Positions 3,213 through 58,567 are shown, counted from the first letter of the stretch. The stretch: 64,000 nt of DNA from Phycisphaerae bacterium (GCA_041661865.1 JBAZTO010000004.1:614-64613), one strand, 5' to 3'. Notes: generated by a model not told the origin, from the letters alone. Numbers and translations: made by a program.

Positions 3213-3320
3213 CTTCCTCGCCGCCGTGAGAACGCGAAACCGCACGAAGTGGGGAAGTCTACCGGGGCCTTGCCCGTGCGGCCAACTCAAAAACGGACGA
3301 CCACGGATGCCTCCGGGCTG

Positions 3321-4184
3321 CTACTTGGGCATCTTCATATCGTTGGCGGTGGGCAGGAAGTCGCTGGGGGTCAGGCCCATGTTGAACTTGATGTTGCGGA
3401 AGATGTACCGCGAGGAAAGCTTCTGCTCCCAGTCGTATCCTTCGATGGCGATGGGAACGAGGTATTCCATGTCGATGAAGGTGACGGTCTTGCAGGAGGG
3501 GTATTGGTCCCTGGGCGGCAGGTGGCGGACCAGGACGATGCTCTTGCGCCCGTCCACTTCGGCATAGCCGCCGAAATCTTCCTTGAGTTCCCCGGCGGCC
3601 TGGGCCTGCCGGTAAACCGTCAGCAGCGCCTCCAGCGAGTTCTTGAAGCCGAACTTGTTGACCGGGCGAAGCGTGTTCTTCATGGCCTCGGCGCCGTCAG
3701 GCTGGCGCATGACCGTGCCGACCAGTTGCCCCAGCATGCCCTTGGGCCGCACGAGCATCTGGTTGCCGTATTTGCCCTCGACGTAGACCACGCGGTCGCC
3801 GACGGGGGCCGTCTCAGGCGTCCATTTCATCGCCACGCTGAAGGGGGCGTCCAGGAACTTCACGTCCATCTGCTGTTCCTTGCCGACGACGTGATTGATC
3901 TGCTCCTGCTTGATCAGCGTGCAGGTGTAGTCGTGATAGCGGCCTTCGTAGTTCTTCAGGCAGTATTCCAGCAGGGCGACGTGGTCGGTCCTGGCCAGTT
4001 TTTCGACGGTGGCCTGGACGCTCAGGGCGTTCTCGCCGACGGCCTGCCCCGCGACAGCCACCAGCAGGTGCGACTGGCGGAAGGCTTCGGTTCGGGAGCA
4101 CAGGATGCAGAAGAGGGAGGCGACCAGAACCCCCACGAGGACGCGAACATGGCGGTTCGTCGGGCGGAATAAGCGCTTTGTCAT
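3321..4184 (-). CDS. hypothetical exported protein
   Basis: ORF 3321..4223; start taken at Met14 (MTKRLF) before a hydrophobic signal-like segment VLVGVLVASLFCIL; co-oriented upstream of the phosphodiesterase gene. Confidence 0.5.
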   Translation of the reverse strand: MTKRLFRPTNRHVRVLVGVLVASLFCILCSRTEAFRQSHLLVAVAGQAVGENALSVQATVEKLARTDHVALLEYCLKNYEGRYHDYTCTLIKQEQINHVVGKEQQMDVKFLDAPFSVAMKWTPETAPVGDRVVYVEGKYGNQMLVRPKGMLGQLVGTVMRQPDGAEAMKNTLRPVNKFGFKNSLEALLTVYRQAQAAGELKEDFGGYAEVDGRKSIVLVRHLPPRDQYPSCKTVTFIDMEYLVPIAIEGYDWEQKLSSRYIFRNIKFNMGLTPSDFLPTANDMKMPK

Positions 4185-8710: not shown

Positions 8711-9343
8711 ATGGCGACAGTGGCAGCGGCTTGCCAGTTCGGCCCCGGCGGCGACTTCGTCCGAACCTGGCCGAAGGGATCGCTGGCGCGGTGCGGTCAG
8801 GTGGCCATTGACCTGGTCAAGCTGGCGCGGTTCAGAGGCTTGGAATCGCCGGTGACCAGCTTTGGCCCGGCGGGGATCGCCTGGCAGCGCTCGGCCGTCG
8901 AAGGCGGCGCAACCGCTTCGCCGGTCTCAGCCGACGGAGTCCTGGCCAGCGGCGCGATGCCGGTCTCGGCCTTGAGCGTCCCCGGCAGGAAAGATACGAC
9001 ACTGCCCTCGCTGGAGTCGGTGACTTCCAGCCTGGCTAACCTGCTTGAGCCCGATCTGGCCAGGCAAAACTTCAAGGCCCCCAGCGGCCTGTACGTCTCC
9101 CAGGAGACGGCGGAGGAGCATGATGCGCACACAAGCTACTGTCACGCCGAGGCAACTGGAGATTCTTCGCTTCATCGGAGACTTTCGCAGGCAGAACGGC
9201 TTTTCCCCGACGATGCAGGAAATTGGCGACCACTTGCACCTGACGAAGGTCACCGCCTTCGAGCACGTCGAGGCCCTCGTCGAAAAGTCGCTGCTCATCC
9301 GTGGCCCCAAGCACAGGGCTCGCTCTTTACGGGTAGCCTCTGA
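8711..9343 (+). CDS. hypothetical Ala/Ser/Gly-rich protein with no stop codon before lexA (possible frameshifted gene/pseudogene)
   Basis: ATG 8711 with strong SD GGGAGGTGGG; high GC3 from 8711 to about 9120, then GC3 collapses where frame overlaps lexA (9120-9343); true 3' end unresolved. Confidence 0.25.
   Translation: MATVAAACQFGPGGDFVRTWPKGSLARCGQVAIDLVKLARFRGLESPVTSFGPAGIAWQRSAVEGGATASPVSADGVLASGAMPVSALSVPGRKDTTLPSLESVTSSLANLLEPDLARQNFKAPSGLYVSQETAEEHDAHTSYCHAEATGDSSLHRRLSQAERLFPDDAGNWRPLAPDEGHRLRARRGPRRKVAAHPWPQAQGSLFTGSL
9094..9109 (+). promoter_or_regulatory. inverted repeat CGTCTCC-CA-GGAGACG overlapping the lexA ribosome-binding region; candidate LexA autoregulatory operator
   Basis: Perfect 7-bp arms, 11-26 nt upstream of lexA ATG; motif identity for this phylum unknown. 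Confidence 0.3.
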
Positions 9344-9737
9344 TTTTGAGCTTCCCGACGAGCGGCCGACCAAGATGCCGCTGGTGGGCAAGGTCGCAGC
9401 CGGCCTGCCCATCGAGGCGATGGAGGACCGCCAGACCTTTGACATGGAAGAACTGTTCGAGGGCAGCGGCGAATCGTTCGTGCTCCAGGTGACCGGCAAC
9501 AGCATGATCGACGAGCACATCCAGAACGGCGACTACGTCATCTGCCGCCGCGGGCGCGAACCGCGAAATGGCGAGACGGTGGTGGCCCTGCTCGAAGAGG
9601 GCCAGGCCACGCTGAAGAAGTTCTACCGCGAGAAAGGCCGCATCCGCCTCCAGCCGGCCAACCCCGCCTTCAAACCCATCTACGCCCAGCAGGTGGACGT
9701 CCAGGGCGTCGTCGTCGGAGTGGTGAGGAAAGTCTGA
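9120..9737 (+). CDS. lexA: LexA repressor (SOS regulator, S24 peptidase)
   Basis: N-terminal winged HTH (TPRQLEILRFI...), Ala-Gly cleavage site VAAGLP, S24 catalytic Ser (GNSMID) and Lys (ATLKKF); start at MMRTQ; ORF track begins at 9045. Confidence 0.9.
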   Translation: MMRTQATVTPRQLEILRFIGDFRRQNGFSPTMQEIGDHLHLTKVTAFEHVEALVEKSLLIRGPKHRARSLRVASDFELPDERPTKMPLVGKVAAGLPIEAMEDRQTFDMEELFEGSGESFVLQVTGNSMIDEHIQNGDYVICRRGREPRNGETVVALLEEGQATLKKFYREKGRIRLQPANPAFKPIYAQQVDVQGVVVGVVRKV

Positions 9738-49550: not shown

Positions 49551-50870
49551 ATGGAAACTGGCGAAAGAACTGAACTGTCGGTGCAGGCCGAGAAGGCCCT
49601 GCTCGTGACGGTCATGCTGCCGGGTTCGACGGCTGACCCCATGGACCCGGTGGGGGAACTGCGGAGTCTGGTCAAGACGGCAGGGGCGGCGGTGGTTGAC
49701 GAGATGCTCGTCAGGCGCCAGGCGGTAAGTCCCTGCCTTTACGTCGGTTCGGGCAAGGCCGAAGAGATTGCCAACCGCGCCGACATGAACGAAGCCAACG
49801 TGGTGATCTTCGACAACGACCTGTCCCCCGGTCAAATCCGCGAGCTTGAGACCATCGTTCGCCGCAAGGTGATCGACCGCAGCGAGCTGATCCTGGATAT
49901 CTTCGCCGCCCACGCCCGCACGGCAGAGAGCAGCCTCCAGGTCGAATTGGCCCAACTGGAATACACCTATCCACGCCTGACGCACATGTGGAGCCACCTG
50001 GAGCGCATGGCCGGCGGCGCCGCCGGCGCGGGCCAGAGCGGCGGCGTCGGCACGCGCGGCCCGGGCGAGAAGCAGATCGAAATCGACCGCCGCCTGGTCC
50101 AGAAGCGCGTCAGCTCGCTCAAACGCCAGATCGCCGAGATCGACCAGCGGAAGATGCGCCAGGTCAGGAGCCGACAGGAAACCTTCGGCGCCTGCCTGGT
50201 CGGCTACACCAACGCCGGCAAGAGCACGCTGATGAACCTGCTGACCGGCGCGGACACCTACGTGGCCGACAAGCTCTTTGCCACGCTGGACACCAAGACG
50301 CGGCGCTGGGACCTGGGCGAGGGGCAGTCGGTGCTGTTGTCGGACACCGTCGGTTTCGTCCGCGACCTGCCGCACCACCTGGTGGCCAGCTTCCGCGCCA
50401 CGCTGGAAGAGGCCATCAACGCCCAACTGCTCATCCACGTCGCCGACGCCTCGCACGACCGCGTCGAGCAGCAGATCCGCGCCGTCGAGGGCGTGCTGGA
50501 TGAACTCCATTGCGACCGCCAGCGCGTCCTGCTGGTGCTCAACAAGATCGACCGCATCAACGACCCGACCGTCCGCACGATCCTGGCCGGCAAGTATCCG
50601 CGAGCGATGTTTGTCTCTGCCGCCACCGGGGCGGGGGCCGCGGAATTGGCTGCCCAGGTCGCCCTTCGCTCCGCCGGCGCGCCCGTCCGCGTGACGCTCA
50701 AGGCCAACTGCGCCAATGGCCGGCTCATGCAGTACATCGCCCAGCACGCCCAGGTGCTCAGCCAGAGCTTCAGCGACTCCACCGCGCTGATCGAGGCCAC
50801 CATTCCCGCCAAACGCCTCGCGCAACTGACGACCTTCGGCAACGACGTGGAGATCCTCGTGAGGTCGTAG
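49551..50870 (+). CDS. hflX: GTPase HflX
   Basis: HflX N-terminal domain, G-domain GYTNAGKSTLMNLLT, DTVGF, NKID. Confidence 0.92.
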   Translation: METGERTELSVQAEKALLVTVMLPGSTADPMDPVGELRSLVKTAGAAVVDEMLVRRQAVSPCLYVGSGKAEEIANRADMNEANVVIFDNDLSPGQIRELETIVRRKVIDRSELILDIFAAHARTAESSLQVELAQLEYTYPRLTHMWSHLERMAGGAAGAGQSGGVGTRGPGEKQIEIDRRLVQKRVSSLKRQIAEIDQRKMRQVRSRQETFGACLVGYTNAGKSTLMNLLTGADTYVADKLFATLDTKTRRWDLGEGQSVLLSDTVGFVRDLPHHLVASFRATLEEAINAQLLIHVADASHDRVEQQIRAVEGVLDELHCDRQRVLLVLNKIDRINDPTVRTILAGKYPRAMFVSAATGAGAAELAAQVALRSAGAPVRVTLKANCANGRLMQYIAQHAQVLSQSFSDSTALIEATIPAKRLAQLTTFGNDVEILVRS

Positions 50871-50885
50871 GCTGATGAAAAAAGC

Positions 50886-50913
50886 TTGGCAAACGACGAA
50901 GTTGCCCTATAAT
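50886..50913 (+). promoter_or_regulatory. near-consensus sigma-70 promoter TTGGCA-N16-TATAAT driving the low-GC two-gene module
   Basis: aagcTTGGCAaacgacgaagttgcccTATAATacg, about 90 nt upstream of ATG 51006. Confidence 0.55.
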
Positions 50914-51005
50914 ACGAAAGGGTAGGTAGGTGTTCGTCAACAAATAGGCCGGTTTTCCCTCGGTGTTCGGCCCGAGTTTGCCGATGACAAAAAGGGAAAA
51001 GAGCG

Positions 51006-51479
51006 ATGATGGACCCGATCAAGGACAAGCCGAGAACAATCCAACTCGACTATTATAGCGAGCATGAGTGTAAGGTTGTGGTCAAGCCGAAGGACCATGA
51101 CGTATTCATGGACAGTCTCCAGAATGTGACTACCGCTTGTCAACTTGGGAACAAGAGCATAAAGTTTTTTGAGCAATTTCGTCTGCTCCTGCAGAAGTTA
51201 GCACAGTGGTTGAGTCAGCGGCGCGGCCTTGCGCGGCACGCCTATATCACACTCAAAGAAGGTGGGTTTCTATTCATCGTGGTCAGATTGACTGCTGAGT
51301 ACAACCGTCAGTTTGAAGACGATTTGACGAAGCTGGACATCGAAGTGGCAACTGATCCCGAACTGGATTTGGTGAACTTGGAGGTTCTGGCGCTCCCCAA
51401 CGGTTCCACGGACTCACTAAGATCGTTTCTTGATCCTGATACCACTATGGAGTTTTCTCCGCGTGCCGAGCAAGACTGA
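51006..51479 (+). CDS. hypothetical protein (gene 1 of low-GC two-gene module)
   Basis: 157-aa, GC about 47% versus about 65% in flanks; no family recognised. Confidence 0.5.
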   Translation: MMDPIKDKPRTIQLDYYSEHECKVVVKPKDHDVFMDSLQNVTTACQLGNKSIKFFEQFRLLLQKLAQWLSQRRGLARHAYITLKEGGFLFIVVRLTAEYNRQFEDDLTKLDIEVATDPELDLVNLEVLALPNGSTDSLRSFLDPDTTMEFSPRAEQD

Positions 51480-51888
51480 CCACCTTACGCTGGCTCAGCA
51501 CAATCAGGACACCATCGAGTTTCTCGGGGCATCGCACTCTGACTTTTCAGACTGGGTGGCAACCATTGCCTTTTACCGGGCGCTGCACCTAGTAGAATCG
51601 CTCTTCTATCAAGATCCGTCGATCGTGCATGGGTGTGACCATAAGACAAGAGAAGCAATTCTGAAAAGACGTTACAGTATGATTTATGTGCATTACAGGC
51701 CGTTGAAGTCAGCATCGATGATTGCGAGATACCTGATGGATAGTGGTGGCACCGCATACAGGAGATTCAGTGACTACCTCAAGCCGACGGAGGTAAAGAG
51801 CGAACTCTTGGAGTTTCGGCTGAAGGAACTCGAAAAACTCGTGCAAATGCTCCTAGTTGTTAAGCCATCTGGTAGCACCGGTGTCTAA
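51463..51888 (+). CDS. hypothetical protein, possible HEPN-like (gene 2 of low-GC module)
   Basis: overlaps gene 1 by 17 nt in another frame (GTG 51463; ORF track starts TTG 51430); contains R-x6-H-Y stretch (RYSMIYVHY) loosely resembling HEPN Rx4-6H motif. Confidence 0.45.
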   Translation: MPSKTDHLTLAQHNQDTIEFLGASHSDFSDWVATIAFYRALHLVESLFYQDPSIVHGCDHKTREAILKRRYSMIYVHYRPLKSASMIARYLMDSGGTAYRRFSDYLKPTEVKSELLEFRLKELEKLVQMLLVVKPSGSTGV

Positions 51889-52139
51889 CGCAGTCGTGCT
51901 GCATCGCCATCTCCGCCGCGGAAGCCACTCACCCGCCACCAGCAGGGGGAAGTTGTACAAGCCGGCAAGGATCCTGCTAGCACGCCCGGCCGATCACGCC
52001 CTGGAACCGGAAGGACAGGTCGTTCATCTACCGCCAGAACGCGCATGCCGCGCGGGCATTTTGCAGGCTCGGCCATGTCGTCGCGGCGGGGGCGGCGATA
52101 TAATCGCCCGTGCGTGGCGCATCCTTAAAGGAACCCTTC

Positions 52140-53168
52140 ATGGCCGACAACACTTACAGTGATCTTCTGCGGCGACTGCTGGCCGGCGAGAGCCTGTCGC
52201 GCGAGCAGTCGCACTGGGCCTTTTCGCAGATCATGGACGGGCAGTGGACCACCGCCCAGGTGGCCGGGCTGCTGGTGGGCCTGGCGGCCAAGGGCGAGAC
52301 CAGCGACGAAATCGCCGGCGCCGCCTCGGCCATGCGAGAGCACGTGGTGCCCATCGACACCGGCGGGGCGGACGTGATCGACACCTGCGGCACGGGCGGC
52401 ACGGGCCTGGCGACTTTCAACATTTCCACGGCCGCCGCGATGGTCTGCGCGGGCGCGGGCGTGAAGGTGGCCAAGCACGGCAACCGCACCCACACGCGGA
52501 CCTCGGGCTCCGCTGACGTGCTGGCGGCGCTGGGCGTGAACATCGACGCCGCGCCGGAAGTGGCCTCGGCCTGCCTGGCGCGGGCGGGCGTGTGCTTCTG
52601 CTTCGCCGTCCGCTGCCACCCGGCCATGAAGCACGCAATGCCCGTCCGCCGCGAGCTGGCTGTGCGGACGATCTTCAACCTGCTGGGCCCGCTGACCAAC
52701 CCCGCCGGGGCCCGGCGGCAGATGATGGGCATCTTCCGCGCGGACCTGACCGAAACGATCGCGAAGGTGCTGGCATCCCTGGGCGCCCTTCACGCCATGG
52801 TCATGCACGCCGAGGACGGCCTGGACGAGTTTTCGACGACCTGTGGCACCAAGGTCACCGAGTTGCGCGGGCCGAGCATCTCCACGCGGACGGTGCATCC
52901 GCATGATTTCGGCCTCCCCACCGCGCGAATGGCCGACCTGCTGGTCAGCAGCCCGCAGCAGTCGGCGGAGGTGATCCGCGGCGTGTTGGCCGGCAAGAAG
53001 GGCCCGGCGCGCGACATCGTGGTCCTCAACGCCGCCGCCGCCATCGCGGTGGCTGACCGAGTTGAGTCCATCGCCGCCGCCATTCCGCTGGCCCAGGAGG
53101 CCATCGACTCCGCCGCCGCCGCCGCCGCTTTGGACAAGCTCATCGGCGTGAGCAACGGAAGAGGATAG
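52140..53168 (+). CDS. trpD: anthranilate phosphoribosyltransferase
   Basis: GTGGDG-like motif CGTGGTGLATFNIST, KHGNR, NPAG motifs; TATAAT at 52099-52104 upstream. Confidence 0.92.
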   Translation: MADNTYSDLLRRLLAGESLSREQSHWAFSQIMDGQWTTAQVAGLLVGLAAKGETSDEIAGAASAMREHVVPIDTGGADVIDTCGTGGTGLATFNISTAAAMVCAGAGVKVAKHGNRTHTRTSGSADVLAALGVNIDAAPEVASACLARAGVCFCFAVRCHPAMKHAMPVRRELAVRTIFNLLGPLTNPAGARRQMMGIFRADLTETIAKVLASLGALHAMVMHAEDGLDEFSTTCGTKVTELRGPSISTRTVHPHDFGLPTARMADLLVSSPQQSAEVIRGVLAGKKGPARDIVVLNAAAAIAVADRVESIAAAIPLAQEAIDSAAAAAALDKLIGVSNGRG

Positions 53169-53191
53169 GAGACGCGACGATCGAAAAAGAA

Positions 53192-53212
53192 ACGCCCCCT
53201 TAGAGGGGGCGT
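53192..53212 (+). terminator. GC hairpin after trpD (no clear U-tract)
   Basis: ACGCCCCC-ttaga-GGGGGCGT. Confidence 0.4.
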
Positions 53213-53322
53213 CGGCCCAGAGATCCTATCCCTGGGGGGGTTCTTCAATGAATTATATCGGAGCCCGCGAGGCAAGAAACAAGAAAAAAGAAGAAAAAGC
53301 GAACCCCAGGGAATAACACTAA

Positions 53323-53973
53323 ACCATACAAAGAGTTATCGCGTACATTGACGGGTTTAACTTGTACTTCGGCCTACGCGAAAACAAGTGGCGAAGGTAT
53401 TACTGGCTCAACTTATGGGCCTTGGTACTCAGTCTACTGAAGCCTGACCAGAAGCTCGTCCTCACGAAGTATTTTACTGCCCGAATCGCTGGTGCTCGGC
53501 AAGGGGATCCTCCGATGCTAGCGCGTGAACTCGATGCCAAAGTCAAGCGGCAAGGCCTGTTTCTGGATGCCCTGAGTACTCTGCGAAACTTACAAGTCTT
53601 TGAAGGACACTATCTTGGGAAAACCGTGGAATGCTTCCGCTGTGGGGGGACGTGGCGAACCCACGAAGAAAAGATGACAGATGTGAACATCGCCACCGAG
53701 ATCTTGACGGATGCATTCAATGATCACTTTGACACGGCGATTCTGATCTCCGGGGATAGCGATCTTGTTCCTCCAGTACTGGCCGTAAGGCAGTATTTTC
53801 CCGGGAAGAAGATTGTTGCGGCCTTCCCACCGTCACGGACCTCCGAACAATTGAAGCGAGCGGTCAATGCCTATTTCGTCATCGGTGAAGCGAAGCTTCG
53901 GCAAAGTCAGTTCCCGGATTACGTCAAGAAATCAGATGGTTTCACTCTTGTTAGGCCACAGGAATGGCGATAG
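53323..53973 (+). CDS. NYN-domain (PIN-like nuclease fold) protein
   Basis: Frame opens at 53323 (stop at 53320); translation ..RVIAYIDGFNLYFGLR matches NYN N-terminal motif; no ATG/GTG before TTG 53362, so start codon is non-canonical or unresolved; low GC. Confidence 0.65.
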   Translation, partial: TIQRVIAYIDGFNLYFGLRENKWRRYYWLNLWALVLSLLKPDQKLVLTKYFTARIAGARQGDPPMLARELDAKVKRQGLFLDALSTLRNLQVFEGHYLGKTVECFRCGGTWRTHEEKMTDVNIATEILTDAFNDHFDTAILISGDSDLVPPVLAVRQYFPGKKIVAAFPPSRTSEQLKRAVNAYFVIGEAKLRQSQFPDYVKKSDGFTLVRPQEWR

Positions 53974-54024
53974 ACGGACCGCGGCCGGCGCTATGAACAA
54001 AGCGTACTTGACGCGACCGAACCG

Positions 54025-54777
54025 TTACTCTTCCCAGTATTTCGGGCGGCCGTAGTAGTCGTACAGACGAATCTCGTACTCGCGGTTGATCGGCGTCGAG
54101 GGATCAAAATGAGTACTGTGGCGGATCTGCTCGCGTGTCAGATCGACGCGCACTTCCCGGTCGGGCCAGTCCACCGATGTCACCCACGCCGGCGAGACCA
54201 GGACCTTCCGGCCGGGAATCCAGTTCCGCGTGTCGACGATCATGTAGCGGAGTACCCAGCCGTCGGTCTGGACCAGGAAGTCGGTGACGTGACCGACCTC
54301 CCCGTCGGTGGCGTGGATGTGATAGCCGGTCACCTCCTTGATGCTGCGAAGGTGCGGGTCGCCGGTCGTCGGCTTGGCCACCTCGGTGCCTGTCCGCGGC
54401 ACCGTTCCAATCGGAAGGATCATGCCCGTCATCGGCACGCCCAAGGGTGAAATCCAGTAGGGGGCCCAGTCGTAATAAATGGCCAACTGCTCCTCGTGCT
54501 GGCGTGAGACGGGCTGATGCGACTCGATGCCGGGACTGTTGGCCACCTTTTCCCTGGTCAACGCGACGGGAAGGATCGCCTGCGACCACTGGGGCTGGCT
54601 GATCACCAGCGGCGAGAGCAACACCTGCCGGCCGGTCAGCCACCCGCCGGACTCGACCGTCAGATAGCGAATGGCCCACGAATGATCGTCAAACAGGAAG
54701 TCCCTGGCGTGGCCCAGCGGGCCGTCGGTGGCCTCGATTCGATACCCGATGATTTCCTTGACGCTGCGAAGCATCAT
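54025..54777 (-). CDS. tandem PRC-barrel domain protein
   Basis: two repeats of KEIIGYRIEATDG.LGHARDFL / KEVTGYHIHATDGEVGHVTDFL PRC-barrel signatures. Confidence 0.8.
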   Translation of the reverse strand: MMLRSVKEIIGYRIEATDGPLGHARDFLFDDHSWAIRYLTVESGGWLTGRQVLLSPLVISQPQWSQAILPVALTREKVANSPGIESHQPVSRQHEEQLAIYYDWAPYWISPLGVPMTGMILPIGTVPRTGTEVAKPTTGDPHLRSIKEVTGYHIHATDGEVGHVTDFLVQTDGWVLRYMIVDTRNWIPGRKVLVSPAWVTSVDWPDREVRVDLTREQIRHSTHFDPSTPINREYEIRLYDYYGRPKYWEE

Positions 54778-54999
54778 AGTCTCCTGACCGGCGGGGTTGC
54801 CCTATGGACCTCTCGCCTCTAAACAATGGTAGGGGGCCTGATCGCCAGTGGCGAATCGCCGACGACGAATTCAGCAATCGCCGATTTTTCGATGCGGTGG
54901 AAGATGTGGCCGCCGGGCTGGTTGCCGCTTTCCCGTTACCTCTTCCTTTTCCCTTTTTTCGGGGCCTTGGGGTATAATCCGGTCTCGCAGGAGAACGCC

Positions 55000-56259
55000 A
55001 TGGATGCCGTCGCATACATCAACACGATTGCCCGCTCTGCCCGCAAGGCTGCCGCCGAACTGGCCCGCACCGCCGGGGCCGAGCGCAACGCCGCCCTGGC
55101 CGCCTGTGCCAAGGCCTTGCGCGAAGGGGCCGAGGCGATCGTTCAGGCCAACGCCAAAGACCTGGCCGCCGCGCAGGAGGCCAAGCTGCCCGCCGCCATG
55201 GTCGATCGTCTGCGCCTCAGCCCGGCGGGGATAGAGTCCATGGCCGCCGCCGTCGAACAGATCGCCGCCCAGAGCGACCCGGTAGGGCAGGCCATCGCCG
55301 CTTACAATCGGCCTAACGGCCTGCGGATCGAGAAGCGCCGCGTGCCCATCGGCGTCATCGGCATCATCTACGAGTCCCGTCCCAACGTGACGGCCGACGC
55401 GGCGGCCCTGTGCCTCAAGAGCGGCAACGCGTGCATTCTGCGCGGCGGCAAGGAAGCCCTGCACTCCAACGTGGCCATTGGCAAGATCCTCGCCCAGACC
55501 CTGGCCGCCACGGGCCTGCCCGCCGGCGCCGTCACCGTCATCGAGACAACCGACCGCGCCGTGGTGCCCGCGATGGCCACGGCTGAGGGGCTGATCGACC
55601 TGATTATTCCGCGCGGCGGCGAGCAGCTCATCCGCGCCGTCGTCCAGGCGGCCACCATTCCGGTCATCAAGCACTACGCGGGCAATTGCCACGTTTACGT
55701 CCACAGCCAGGCCGACCTGGAGATGGCCCAGCGCATCACCGTCAACGCCAAGTGCCAGCGGCCCGGCGTCTGCAACGCCGCCGAGACGCTGCTGGTCGAT
55801 GCCGCGGTGGCCGAGAAGTTCCTGCCCCTCGTGGCAGCCAGGCTGACCGCCGCCGGCGTGGAACTCCGCGGCTGCGAGCGGTCGCGCAGGATCGTGCCCT
55901 CGATGAAGGCCGCCTGCGAGGAAGACTGGCGGACGGAGTACCTGGACCTGATCCTGGCCGTCCGCGTGGTCGATGGCCTGGACCAGGCCGTCGAGCACAT
56001 CAACGCACATGGCTCGGGCCACACCGACGCCATTGTCACCGAGTCGCTCTCGGCGGCTGAGCGGTTCGTGGCCGCGGTGGACTCCTCCAGCGTGATGGTC
56101 AACGTCTCGACGCGTTTCAGCGACGGCGGGGAGTATGGCCTGGGGGCCGAGGTGGGCATCAGCACCGACAAACTCCACGCCCGCGGCCCGATGGGCGCCG
56201 AGGACCTGACCACCTACAAGTGGATCGTCACCGGCCACGGTCACCTTCGCGGACAATAG
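55000..56259 (+). CDS. proA: gamma-glutamyl phosphate reductase
   Basis: ATG 55000 with AGGAGA SD; catalytic Cys in NAKCQRPGVCNAAET; TATAAT at 54973-54978. Confidence 0.92.
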   Translation: MDAVAYINTIARSARKAAAELARTAGAERNAALAACAKALREGAEAIVQANAKDLAAAQEAKLPAAMVDRLRLSPAGIESMAAAVEQIAAQSDPVGQAIAAYNRPNGLRIEKRRVPIGVIGIIYESRPNVTADAAALCLKSGNACILRGGKEALHSNVAIGKILAQTLAATGLPAGAVTVIETTDRAVVPAMATAEGLIDLIIPRGGEQLIRAVVQAATIPVIKHYAGNCHVYVHSQADLEMAQRITVNAKCQRPGVCNAAETLLVDAAVAEKFLPLVAARLTAAGVELRGCERSRRIVPSMKAACEEDWRTEYLDLILAVRVVDGLDQAVEHINAHGSGHTDAIVTESLSAAERFVAAVDSSSVMVNVSTRFSDGGEYGLGAEVGISTDKLHARGPMGAEDLTTYKWIVTGHGHLRGQ

Positions 56260-58482: not shown

Positions 58483-58567
58483 TGCCCGGGACAGGAGTTG
58501 AACCTGCATGGGACAAAGTCCCACCAGCCCCTCAAGCTGGCGCGTCTGCCAATTCCGCCACCCGGGC
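58483..58567 (-). tRNA. tRNA-Leu (anticodon GAG)
   Basis: 85-nt cloverleaf: acceptor GCCCGGG/CCCGGGC, D-arm GCGGAATTGGCAGACGC, anticodon stem CCAGC/GCTGG with loop TTGAGGG, long variable arm GGGAC-TTT-GTCCC, T-loop TTCAACT, discriminator A; close to E. coli tRNA-Leu D-arm. Confidence 0.85.

Follow-up and report, generated by a model that had tools for sequence, protein, structure and literature searches.

We analyzed a 64,000-nucleotide stretch of DNA from a Phycisphaerae bacterium (GCA_041661865.1 JBAZTO010000004.1:614-64613), hereafter called the window, whose own numbering is used for all coordinates, and we focused on a gene in it that encodes an NYN-domain nuclease and lacks a canonical start codon. 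The account that best fits the data, to which we assign a probability of about 75%, is that a substitution at the codon from which this family usually starts, now ATA, has recently made the gene a null allele or a strong hypomorph expressed at about 1%, and that the gene belongs to a two-gene module, acquired by horizontal gene transfer, whose other member is a divergently oriented small RNA gene. According to this account, the substitution is probably derived rather than ancestral, and expression of the nuclease should be low. Taken by itself, the start-codon lesion is an instance of ordinary gene decay or, at most, of an unusual weak start.

We characterized the 5′ end of the gene by direct reading (Table 1). 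The plus-strand NYN frame is closed upstream by TAA at 53314-53316 and again by TAA at 53320-53322. From 53323 it reads ACC ATA CAA AGA GTT ATC GCG TAC ATT GAC GGG TTT AAC TTG, translated as T I Q R V I A Y I D G F N L, and it then continues uninterrupted to the TAG at 53971-53973. No ATG, GTG, or TTG occurs in the frame from 53323 up to the TTG at 53362; the near-cognate codons in this 5′ end are ATA 53326, ATC 53338, and ATT 53347. A run of 13 codons without a start is not unusual, its chance being about 0.53, that is, (61/64)^13. The unusual feature is that the first canonical start lies 3′ of the codons for the conserved N-terminal strand and for D10, the first catalytic Asp (encoded at 53350), a property shared by none of 86 homologous loci. 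The initial annotation of this region, which had described an open frame from 53323 with its N-terminal motif upstream of the first TTG and had offered either a near-cognate start (ATA, ATC, or ATT) or 5′ damage as the alternatives, was correct on all of these points. Entry into the frame by frameshifting was ruled out, as the other two frames contain no start able to feed into it. Read-through from the in-frame ATG at 53248 was also ruled out: the two TAA codons intervene, and TAA is the stop codon of the neighboring PRC-barrel gene (54025-54027, minus strand).

In a survey of start positions, we mapped the catalytic Asp in each homologous locus and recorded which in-frame starts lie 5′ of it, using 52 loci from species-representative genomes and close relatives together with 34 non-redundant metagenome loci, 86 in all. 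A canonical start 5′ of the Asp was missing in none of the 86. ATG was found eight codons before the Asp in 21 of the 52 genome loci (and nine codons before it in 8 of the 52), as well as in 21 of the 34 metagenome loci, so that 42 of the 86 loci have ATG at the eighth codon. The ATA at 53326 occupies exactly this eighth codon, the usual start of the family, and it is unique among the 87 loci. ATA is one transition away from ATG. The profile of the HEC-09 family in PADLOC aligns from its position 2 at residue 3 of the frame, and locus L007 has MQRVIAYIDGFNLYFG at the place of the window's IQRVIAYIDGFNLYFG. Two close relatives, L231 (70% identity) and L002 (69%), have TTG at the codon equivalent to the ATA. 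A start equivalent to TTG 53362, which the initial annotation had named as the position that would speak against its own reading, was found in 0 of the 86 loci; all of them have a canonical start 5′ of the Asp, most often at the position of the ATA.

Judged by profile and fold, the gene is an NYN nuclease gene of the HEC-09 family, with a putative metal-dependent ribonuclease activity. Its product matched Pfam PF01936 (NYN) at 45.5 bits, the curated threshold being 24.2 (E 1.5e-11), and the PADLOC hidden Markov model for HEC-09 at 292 bits (E 4.1e-88), with profile positions 2-203 of 203 lying on residues 3-216. An AlphaFold2 model built from 30 sequences had a mean predicted local distance difference test (pLDDT) score of 93.7 and displayed the PIN-like alpha/beta fold. 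The best match of this model in the PDB by fold search was 2qip, VPA0982 of Vibrio parahaemolyticus (E 1.3e-9, probability 1.0), which we take to be a member of the LabA/NYN family. These matches bear out the initial identification of the gene. A sequence-only search of the PDB with the NYN protein returned nothing significant, and NCBIfam contained no family matching it. In an alignment with 29 homologues (A1), D10, D120, D145, and D147 were invariant or nearly so, and all four are present in the window frame, with D10 encoded 5′ of every canonical start in that frame. The window protein agrees with the alignment at 37 of 37 invariant columns, and only three of its residues differ from the 90% consensus (V74 for R, I140 for L, and K163 for R). 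Since the rest of the protein matches the conserved columns in this way, either the lesion is recent or the gene is still working. Moreover, because every downstream canonical start removes the first catalytic Asp, active enzyme could be made only through near-cognate initiation. The NYN family is large, with 6255 matches at E ≤ 1e-5 in many phyla, and a protein-pattern scan of 2.9 million viral contigs (IMG/VR) found only two NYN loci. The window protein (53323-53970) also matches PHROG phrog_7929, a family of unknown function (E 2.4e-36).

HEC-09, or Hma-embedded candidate 09, was proposed as a defence candidate for its embedding in Hma (helicase-methylase-ATPase) systems and was described as MARF1-like, with three conserved Asp residues common to the MARF1 active site (Payne et al., bioRxiv 10.1101/2024.01.29.577857). 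The window protein is akin to it in its full-length match to the family model, its MARF1-like NYN domain, its conserved Asp residues, its Zn-ribbon-like insert, and its encoding as a single protein-coding gene. It differs in three respects: the window copy lies not in an Hma system but between trpD and a PRC-barrel gene, it has no canonical start, and it has an RNA neighbor, whereas no RNA partner is apparently described in the preprint, in which a text search for 'non-coding', 'intergenic', and 'terminator' came back empty. Some relatives do seem to be embedded in Hma systems, for example L050, in which a downstream open reading frame (ORF) has a DUF1156-like motif, and L035, which has large flanking ORFs that were not profiled.

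Initiation at AUA, AUC, and AUU in E. coli amounts to about 0.02-3% of that at AUG (bioRxiv 10.1101/063800). The main rival to loss of the start holds that the AUA is a genuine, selected weak start, which would hold the translation of a potentially toxic nuclease, relative to its RNA partner, to about 1% of the normal level. The fully intact ORF with its conserved residues, the weak TTG at the same codon in two close relatives, and the measurable initiation at AUA in E. coli are all in keeping with such a start. We nevertheless consider it improbable, at something like one chance among several, because the ATA has no counterpart at any other locus, no near-identical relative on record shows the codon to be maintained, and the ribosome-binding site is poorly spaced. 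In E. coli, infC and pcnB offer a parallel to the AUA in that a near-cognate AUN start, AUU in their case, limits translation; that of infC is presumably autoregulatory. These AUU starts are conserved, unlike the ATA of the window.

Two further explanations seem very improbable to us. A sequencing or consensus error may conceal a true ATG, since a single G/A difference would restore the usual family start and the source is a metagenome-assembled genome (MAG); however, the MAG contig at NCBI is 100% identical to the Logan assembly of run SRR18595301 over window positions 50515-55373 (4859 bases, no mismatch), a perfect agreement that makes an assembly artefact unlikely, and consensus substitution errors are rare with short reads. 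Equally hard to credit is a true product that starts downstream, at TTG 53362 (203 amino acids) or ATG 53515 (152 amino acids), to give a truncated, nuclease-dead protein that might, for example, only bind RNA: the 152-amino-acid product is called by all three annotation pipelines, but with either start the NYN fold would lose strand 1 and its first catalytic Asp, the 13 codons 5′ of the TTG still encode the conserved RVIAYIDGFN motif perfectly, and, as described above, no homologue starts at the TTG-equivalent position. The annotated 152-amino-acid product lacks D10, and its record, MFA6132932.1, was 100% identical over 70% of our query. The 215- and 203-amino-acid versions were both absent from a collection of about 15 billion proteins, and public collections held no near-identical relative of the NYN protein and no ATG-bearing or TTG-called version of it.

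Several points weigh against the account that we favor. The ORF has no frameshift or internal stop, and continued function through a weak AUA start is compatible with this. Some of the nearest relatives start farther upstream, with GTG 23 codons before the Asp in L001 and ATG 13 codons before it in L232, L005, and L006; because the nearest relatives differ in start position, the ancestral start codon of the lineage cannot be fixed. The Logan assembly and the MAG may share the same reads, so that their agreement is not an independent check. Tests in E. coli showed no protection by HEC-09 against the phages used (bioRxiv 10.1101/2024.01.29.577857). As for the RNA, it is a predicted transcript at every locus, and its promoter in the window lacks a correctly spaced -35 hexamer, so that its expression here is less than certain. 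Finally, a Shine–Dalgarno-like AGGGA lies 13-14 nucleotides 5′ of the ATA, a poor spacing that counts neither for nor against inactivation.

The second member of the module is a small RNA gene on the minus strand, divergent from the NYN gene. The hairpin at 53192-53212 had been taken in the initial annotation for the trpD terminator. We rejected this identity, as the T-run is found on the minus strand only and none is present on the plus strand, on which trpD lies, and as this hairpin, with a second one, is conserved beside NYN genes whose upstream neighbors are unrelated to trpD. Because it is conserved beside NYN without trpD, the hairpin belongs to the islet, as the 3′ end of the divergent small RNA gene. 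Likewise, the tract once described as an A-rich leader of the nuclease gene lies in the spacer between the -10 box of the RNA gene and the NYN start, and it partly covers the place where relatives have the -35 hexamer. A covariance model of the RNA family (see below) matched the window at 53178-53251 on the minus strand with 80.6 bits, which ties the top score, and found no other match in the 64 kb. The RNA gene is intact in the window, and its transcript is predicted. No TTGACA is present at a 17-nucleotide spacing from the -10 box, TTGCCT being found at 12 nucleotides, and a strict promoter scan was empty at this RNA because of the missing -35 hexamer. At the gathering score, no family in Rfam 15 matched the window RNA; lenient searches gave only weak overlaps far below gathering in the window (E up to 10), and in seven further loci (E up to 1) no match covered the element. 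A perfect 9-nucleotide inverted repeat (TCCCTGGGG / CCCCAGGGA) joins 53229-53237 with 53304-53312, such that the antisense of the 5′ arm of the small RNA pairs with the Shine–Dalgarno-like AGGGA; it could sequester the NYN ribosome-binding site in a long read-through transcript, and its length is that expected by chance for a region of such size.

Table 1 Features of the RNA–NYN module in the window
Feature	Position	Strand	Remarks
Predicted small RNA gene, about 63 nucleotides	53183-53245	-	Ends inferred from -10 box and U tract; C-rich 5′ tail, hairpin A, CCGAC linker, hairpin B, U tract
Hairpin B, intrinsic terminator stem-loop	53192-53212	-	U tract 53183-53191; found by terminator scan on minus strand only; inverted repeat I4; compensatory changes elsewhere
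Hairpin A	53216-53236	-	Nine pairs, one of them G.U on minus strand; apex GAU-AGG-AUC (family consensus GAUAGCAUC)
-10 box, TATAAT (perfect)	53252-53257	-	About 11 nucleotides 5′ of ACCCC tail
A-rich tract (T-rich on minus strand)	53268-53300		Place of relatives' RNA-promoter -35 hexamer and spacer to NYN ribosome-binding site
Two in-frame TAA stops	53314-53322	+	Just 5′ of ATA codon
NYN ORF (PADLOC HEC-09 family)	53326-53973	+	From ATA to TAG 53971-53973; 215 amino acids if initiated at ATA
GAC codon for first catalytic Asp (D10, YIDGFN motif)	53350-53352	+	Lost if start is TTG 53362 or ATG 53515
TTG, first canonical in-frame start	53362-53364	+	3′ of catalytic Asp; 203-amino-acid product
Internal ATG	53515-53517	+	Start called by NCBI (MFA6132932.1), IMG, and Logan; 152-amino-acid fragment

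Inspection of 50 loci revealed the same two-hairpin element ahead of NYN genes from many phyla, with a conserved TGTCAA on its right. At L001, the closest NYN homologue, the module sits 3′ of tsaE rather than trpD, and a 59-nucleotide stretch there is 83% identical to window positions 53185-53243, with compensatory differences in both hairpins. On the minus strand, the general layout is TTGACA, 17 nucleotides, TAnnnT, about 11 nucleotides, an ACCCC tail, hairpin A, a CCGAC linker, hairpin B, and UUUCUUUUU; the apex of hairpin A, GAUAGCAUC, is nearly invariant. TTGAC is in place in 40 of 55 loci and a full -35/-10 pair in 31 of 55, while Bacteroidota loci have TAnnTTTG instead of TTGACA-17-TAnnnT. 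TAnnTTTG is, we presume, the Bacteroidetes promoter element. The RNA is thus predicted to have its own promoter, of the sigma-70 or the Bacteroidetes type according to the host.

We aligned 55 sequences of the RNA (alignment A3), which also served as the basis of the covariance model. Standard pairs form in 96.0% of the structure cells, and 13 of the 17 pairs are changed on both sides; none of 500 shuffles reached the observed values, and sliding the partners lowered pairing to about 44%. Forty-five G.U pairs are seen when the element is read on the minus strand, whereas a reading on the plus strand would give G.U at 5 positions, and these G.U versus A.C counts identify the minus strand as the RNA strand. 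A further alignment (A4) of 75 distinct sequences, from a metagenome set collected by the RNA first, showed 96.8% pairing and 10 pairs with double changes, although as a model-fitted alignment it leans towards structure. The covariance model detected the RNA beside NYN in 79 of 82 loci, the exceptions being L002, L054, and L076 (L067 was weak), and every match adjoined an NYN gene, with none elsewhere in 492 kb. These results demonstrate the existence of the RNA, its strand, its structure, and its genetic linkage to NYN. The RNA, which is new to Rfam 15, occurs across Proteobacteria, Chloroflexota, Planctomycetota, and Bacteroidota. No pairing of NYN with an RNA was described in the literature searched, a search whose coverage lay outside subscription journals. 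The RNAs DUF3800-I, drum, and skipping-rope (Weinberg et al. 2017, PMC5737381) are comparable in being conserved, structured, gene-associated RNAs that end in intrinsic terminators, and L105 pairs the present RNA with a DUF3800 gene; the present RNA differs from them in that it has no Rfam match and its main partner is NYN.

We also searched 241 million metagenome records for the exact 17-base core of the RNA, which gave at least 120 loci. Among the matches listed, NYN was divergent from the RNA in 59 loci and co-directional, immediately 3′ of the RNA, in 16; 31 had no NYN on a contig with room for one, and in 14 the contig end was too close to tell. The co-directional layout, thus found in 16 of the 75 NYN-linked loci among these matches and also in L024 and L027, runs in the order promoter, RNA, hairpin B, ribosome-binding site, and ATG-x-R-V, with about 25-35 nucleotides from the hairpin to the ATG. 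As this distance leaves no room for a separate promoter, transcription of the co-directional NYN gene must come from read-through. Correspondingly, the U tract that follows hairpin B in the co-directional form is weaker, with 4.25 T in 9 nucleotides as compared with 6.46 (p 9e-9). The RNA is present once in the window, and some loci have arrays of two to four full units. At L050 (3150-3545), NYN is followed by four RNA genes about 103 nucleotides apart, each with a TTGACA-17-TAATAT promoter, and then by an ORF whose N-terminal motif, judged by eye and not by profile, is of the DUF1156 type. Three abutting RNA copies stand under one promoter at L022 (2241-2434), and of the two copies at L045 (3100-3290), the terminator loop of the first holds the TTGACA of the second.

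The neighbors of NYN-free RNA loci are defence or mobile genes, encoding an Hma-type helicase and a DUF1156 methylase (L218 and L220), DUF3800 (L105), Cas8b (L162), a DNA methylase (L204), an AAA_21 ATPase (L164), and an IS110 transposase (L148). In L218 and L220 the RNA lies just 5′ of the DUF1156 methylase gene, and in L218 the Hma-type helicase gene comes before the RNA, with no embedded gene between; this Hma junction looks like an unoccupied cassette site. In IMG/VR the core pattern was found in 19 contigs, of which 17 were confirmed by the model (up to 80.6 bits), and none had an NYN gene within the fetched stretch; high-scoring copies without NYN include L098, L101, L089/L093, L095, and L097. 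Several viral copies lie between large same-strand ORFs that, by eye, are phage structural or ribonucleotide-reductase-like, and some have an extended -10 box (TGGTATAAT). The RNA is present, unannotated, on the Sulfuricystis multivorans plasmid pSTJ2 (L229, record 9295-9368) and in the Dolichospermum phage Dfl-JY45 (L230, record 74458-74518), where it is on the strand opposite its neighbors.

What might the RNA do with the nuclease? Several features suggest that it is an antitoxin-like partner of the nuclease, in a module resembling type III toxin–antitoxin (TA) systems, in which it would act in trans on the nuclease, or together with it, and hold it in check. First, the divergent layout leaves no way for the RNA to work as a cis-regulatory leader. 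Second, hairpin A, with its invariant apex above a lower stem that covaries, has the look of a site recognized by a protein. Third, the arrays and strong promoters suggest that RNA dose matters. Fourth, the co-directional layout with its leaky terminator is that of type III loci such as ToxIN; the weakened terminator and the lack of room for an NYN promoter imply co-expression in this form. Arrays would then raise the dose of the RNA, the leaky terminator would set the ratio of RNA to toxin in the co-directional form, and the stand-alone copies in phages, which would fit an anti-defence role in being without the nuclease, could be decoys that disarm it. The window, on the same scheme, would represent early decay, with the toxin silenced at its start codon and the antitoxin gene still intact. 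That these loci make up a new and very broad class of RNA-antitoxin (type III-like) TA or abortive-infection systems, working in all these respects as outlined, is a tentative proposal that we would place short of even odds.

We compared the module with known TA systems. Type III systems (ToxIN, CptIN, TenpIN, and AvcID) likewise place a nuclease or other enzyme toxin beside a small structured RNA, as is seen in the window (53183-53245, minus strand); one architecture of the present family follows their order of promoter, RNA, leaky terminator, and toxin gene, some of its loci have multi-copy RNA arrays, and phage RNAs without the toxin recall the pseudo-ToxI escape, to which, on our assumption, the lone phage copies may be likened. 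The differences are that the toxin fold here is NYN and not ToxN/AbiQ, that the RNA, about 63 nucleotides long with two hairpins and its own promoter, is not a set of 34-36-nucleotide tandem repeats, and that most loci are divergent, including the window, where the RNA does not lie upstream on the same strand as the toxin gene. Type I systems such as tisB/istR-1 and shoB/ohsC share with the window a small RNA gene divergent from an adjacent toxin gene, but the protein here is a 215-amino-acid enzyme rather than a small membrane peptide, and the association of RNA and NYN is independent of orientation. Trans-antisense pairing between the RNA and the NYN start region was no stronger for cognate than for non-cognate pairs (-36.6 versus -36.2 kcal/mol, p 0.32). 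These energies lend no support to an antisense mechanism of the type I kind, which may still operate if the NYN mRNA starts upstream of the RNA gene, as it would then overlap that gene in antisense. By the tests run, the RNA family is a member of none of Rfam 15, the DUF3800-I/drum/skipping-rope RNAs, or the type III systems.

On a rival reading, the RNA is no functional partner of the nuclease but belongs to defence islands and cassette junctions in general, where it could be a portable promoter–terminator RNA gene with a role of its own or a homology arm for cassette exchange, and NYN is merely its commonest passenger. NYN is missing from 31 of the 106 informative loci found by the RNA among the matches listed, the NYN-free neighbors are those named above, from the Hma helicase and DUF1156 methylase to IS110, NYN is flanked by RNA copies on both sides in L035, L218 resembles an empty Hma junction, and phage contigs carry the RNA alone. 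We regard this alternative as less likely than not, though kept alive by the NYN-free loci, given that the RNA is linked to one protein family in 79 of 82 NYN loci, which lie in unrelated chromosomal contexts outside defence islands, the window among them, and given that the weakened terminator and missing room for an NYN promoter in the co-directional form point to co-expression.

We next consider how the module came to the window. The low-GC islet noted in the initial annotation is real: the GC content of the NYN ORF is 0.51 as compared with 0.67 in its flanks. The deficit, 0.155, exceeds the family mean of 0.046 (65 loci), and this excess points to a comparatively recent arrival. The module also sits in unrelated genomic contexts in other loci. 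A recent insertion, as originally suggested, is therefore plausible, given the GC deficit and the varied contexts, but the hairpin after which it was said to have occurred is not that of trpD. The module begins within about 15 nucleotides of the trpD stop and ends about 50 nucleotides before the stop of the convergent PRC-barrel gene. We found no syntenic empty site: the closest trpD relatives (75-77% identity; L224-L228) have neither hflX nor PRC-barrel neighbors, and neither NYN nor the RNA, so that this comparison is uninformative because of their different synteny. No target-site duplication or terminal repeats were found around the islet, only short repeats at chance level.

In the nearest trpD relatives on long contigs (L226/L227, 5178-6620), a gene for a SIR2_2-domain protein (a weak Pfam match) lies immediately 3′ of trpD, so that in this lineage the 3′ flank of trpD may be variable and defence-prone. 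Between hflX and trpD, at 50880-51900 of the window, there is a second low-GC islet (GC content 0.47-0.53 versus about 0.68), which contains overlapping plus-strand ORFs at 51006-51479 (157 amino acids) and 51430-51888 (152 amino acids; 141 in the Logan record), neither of which matched Pfam, NCBIfam, PADLOC, or PHROG. Elsewhere, Rfam searches identified a tRNA gene at 58483-58567 of the window on the minus strand (50.9 bits) and a 6S RNA 3′ of pheT in L002, at 3304-3457 (47.3 bits, just above the gathering score).

The public annotation of this locus is misleading, in that its 152-amino-acid "NYN domain-containing protein" is a fragment of a gene with ATA at its start and the intergenic hairpin is part of the inserted module. 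The RNA would add to Rfam 15 a structured RNA class that it lacks, and cultured carriers are at hand in Singulisphaera sp. PoT (plasmid pPOT-3), Opitutaceae bacterium D2-102, and Sulfuricystis multivorans (pSTJ2). HEC-09 had no phenotype when tested alone; the linked RNA suggests that the nuclease may have an RNA antitoxin or regulator and that the phage copies might be decoys. If the TA interpretation is true, the window would present a silenced toxin gene beside an intact antitoxin gene.

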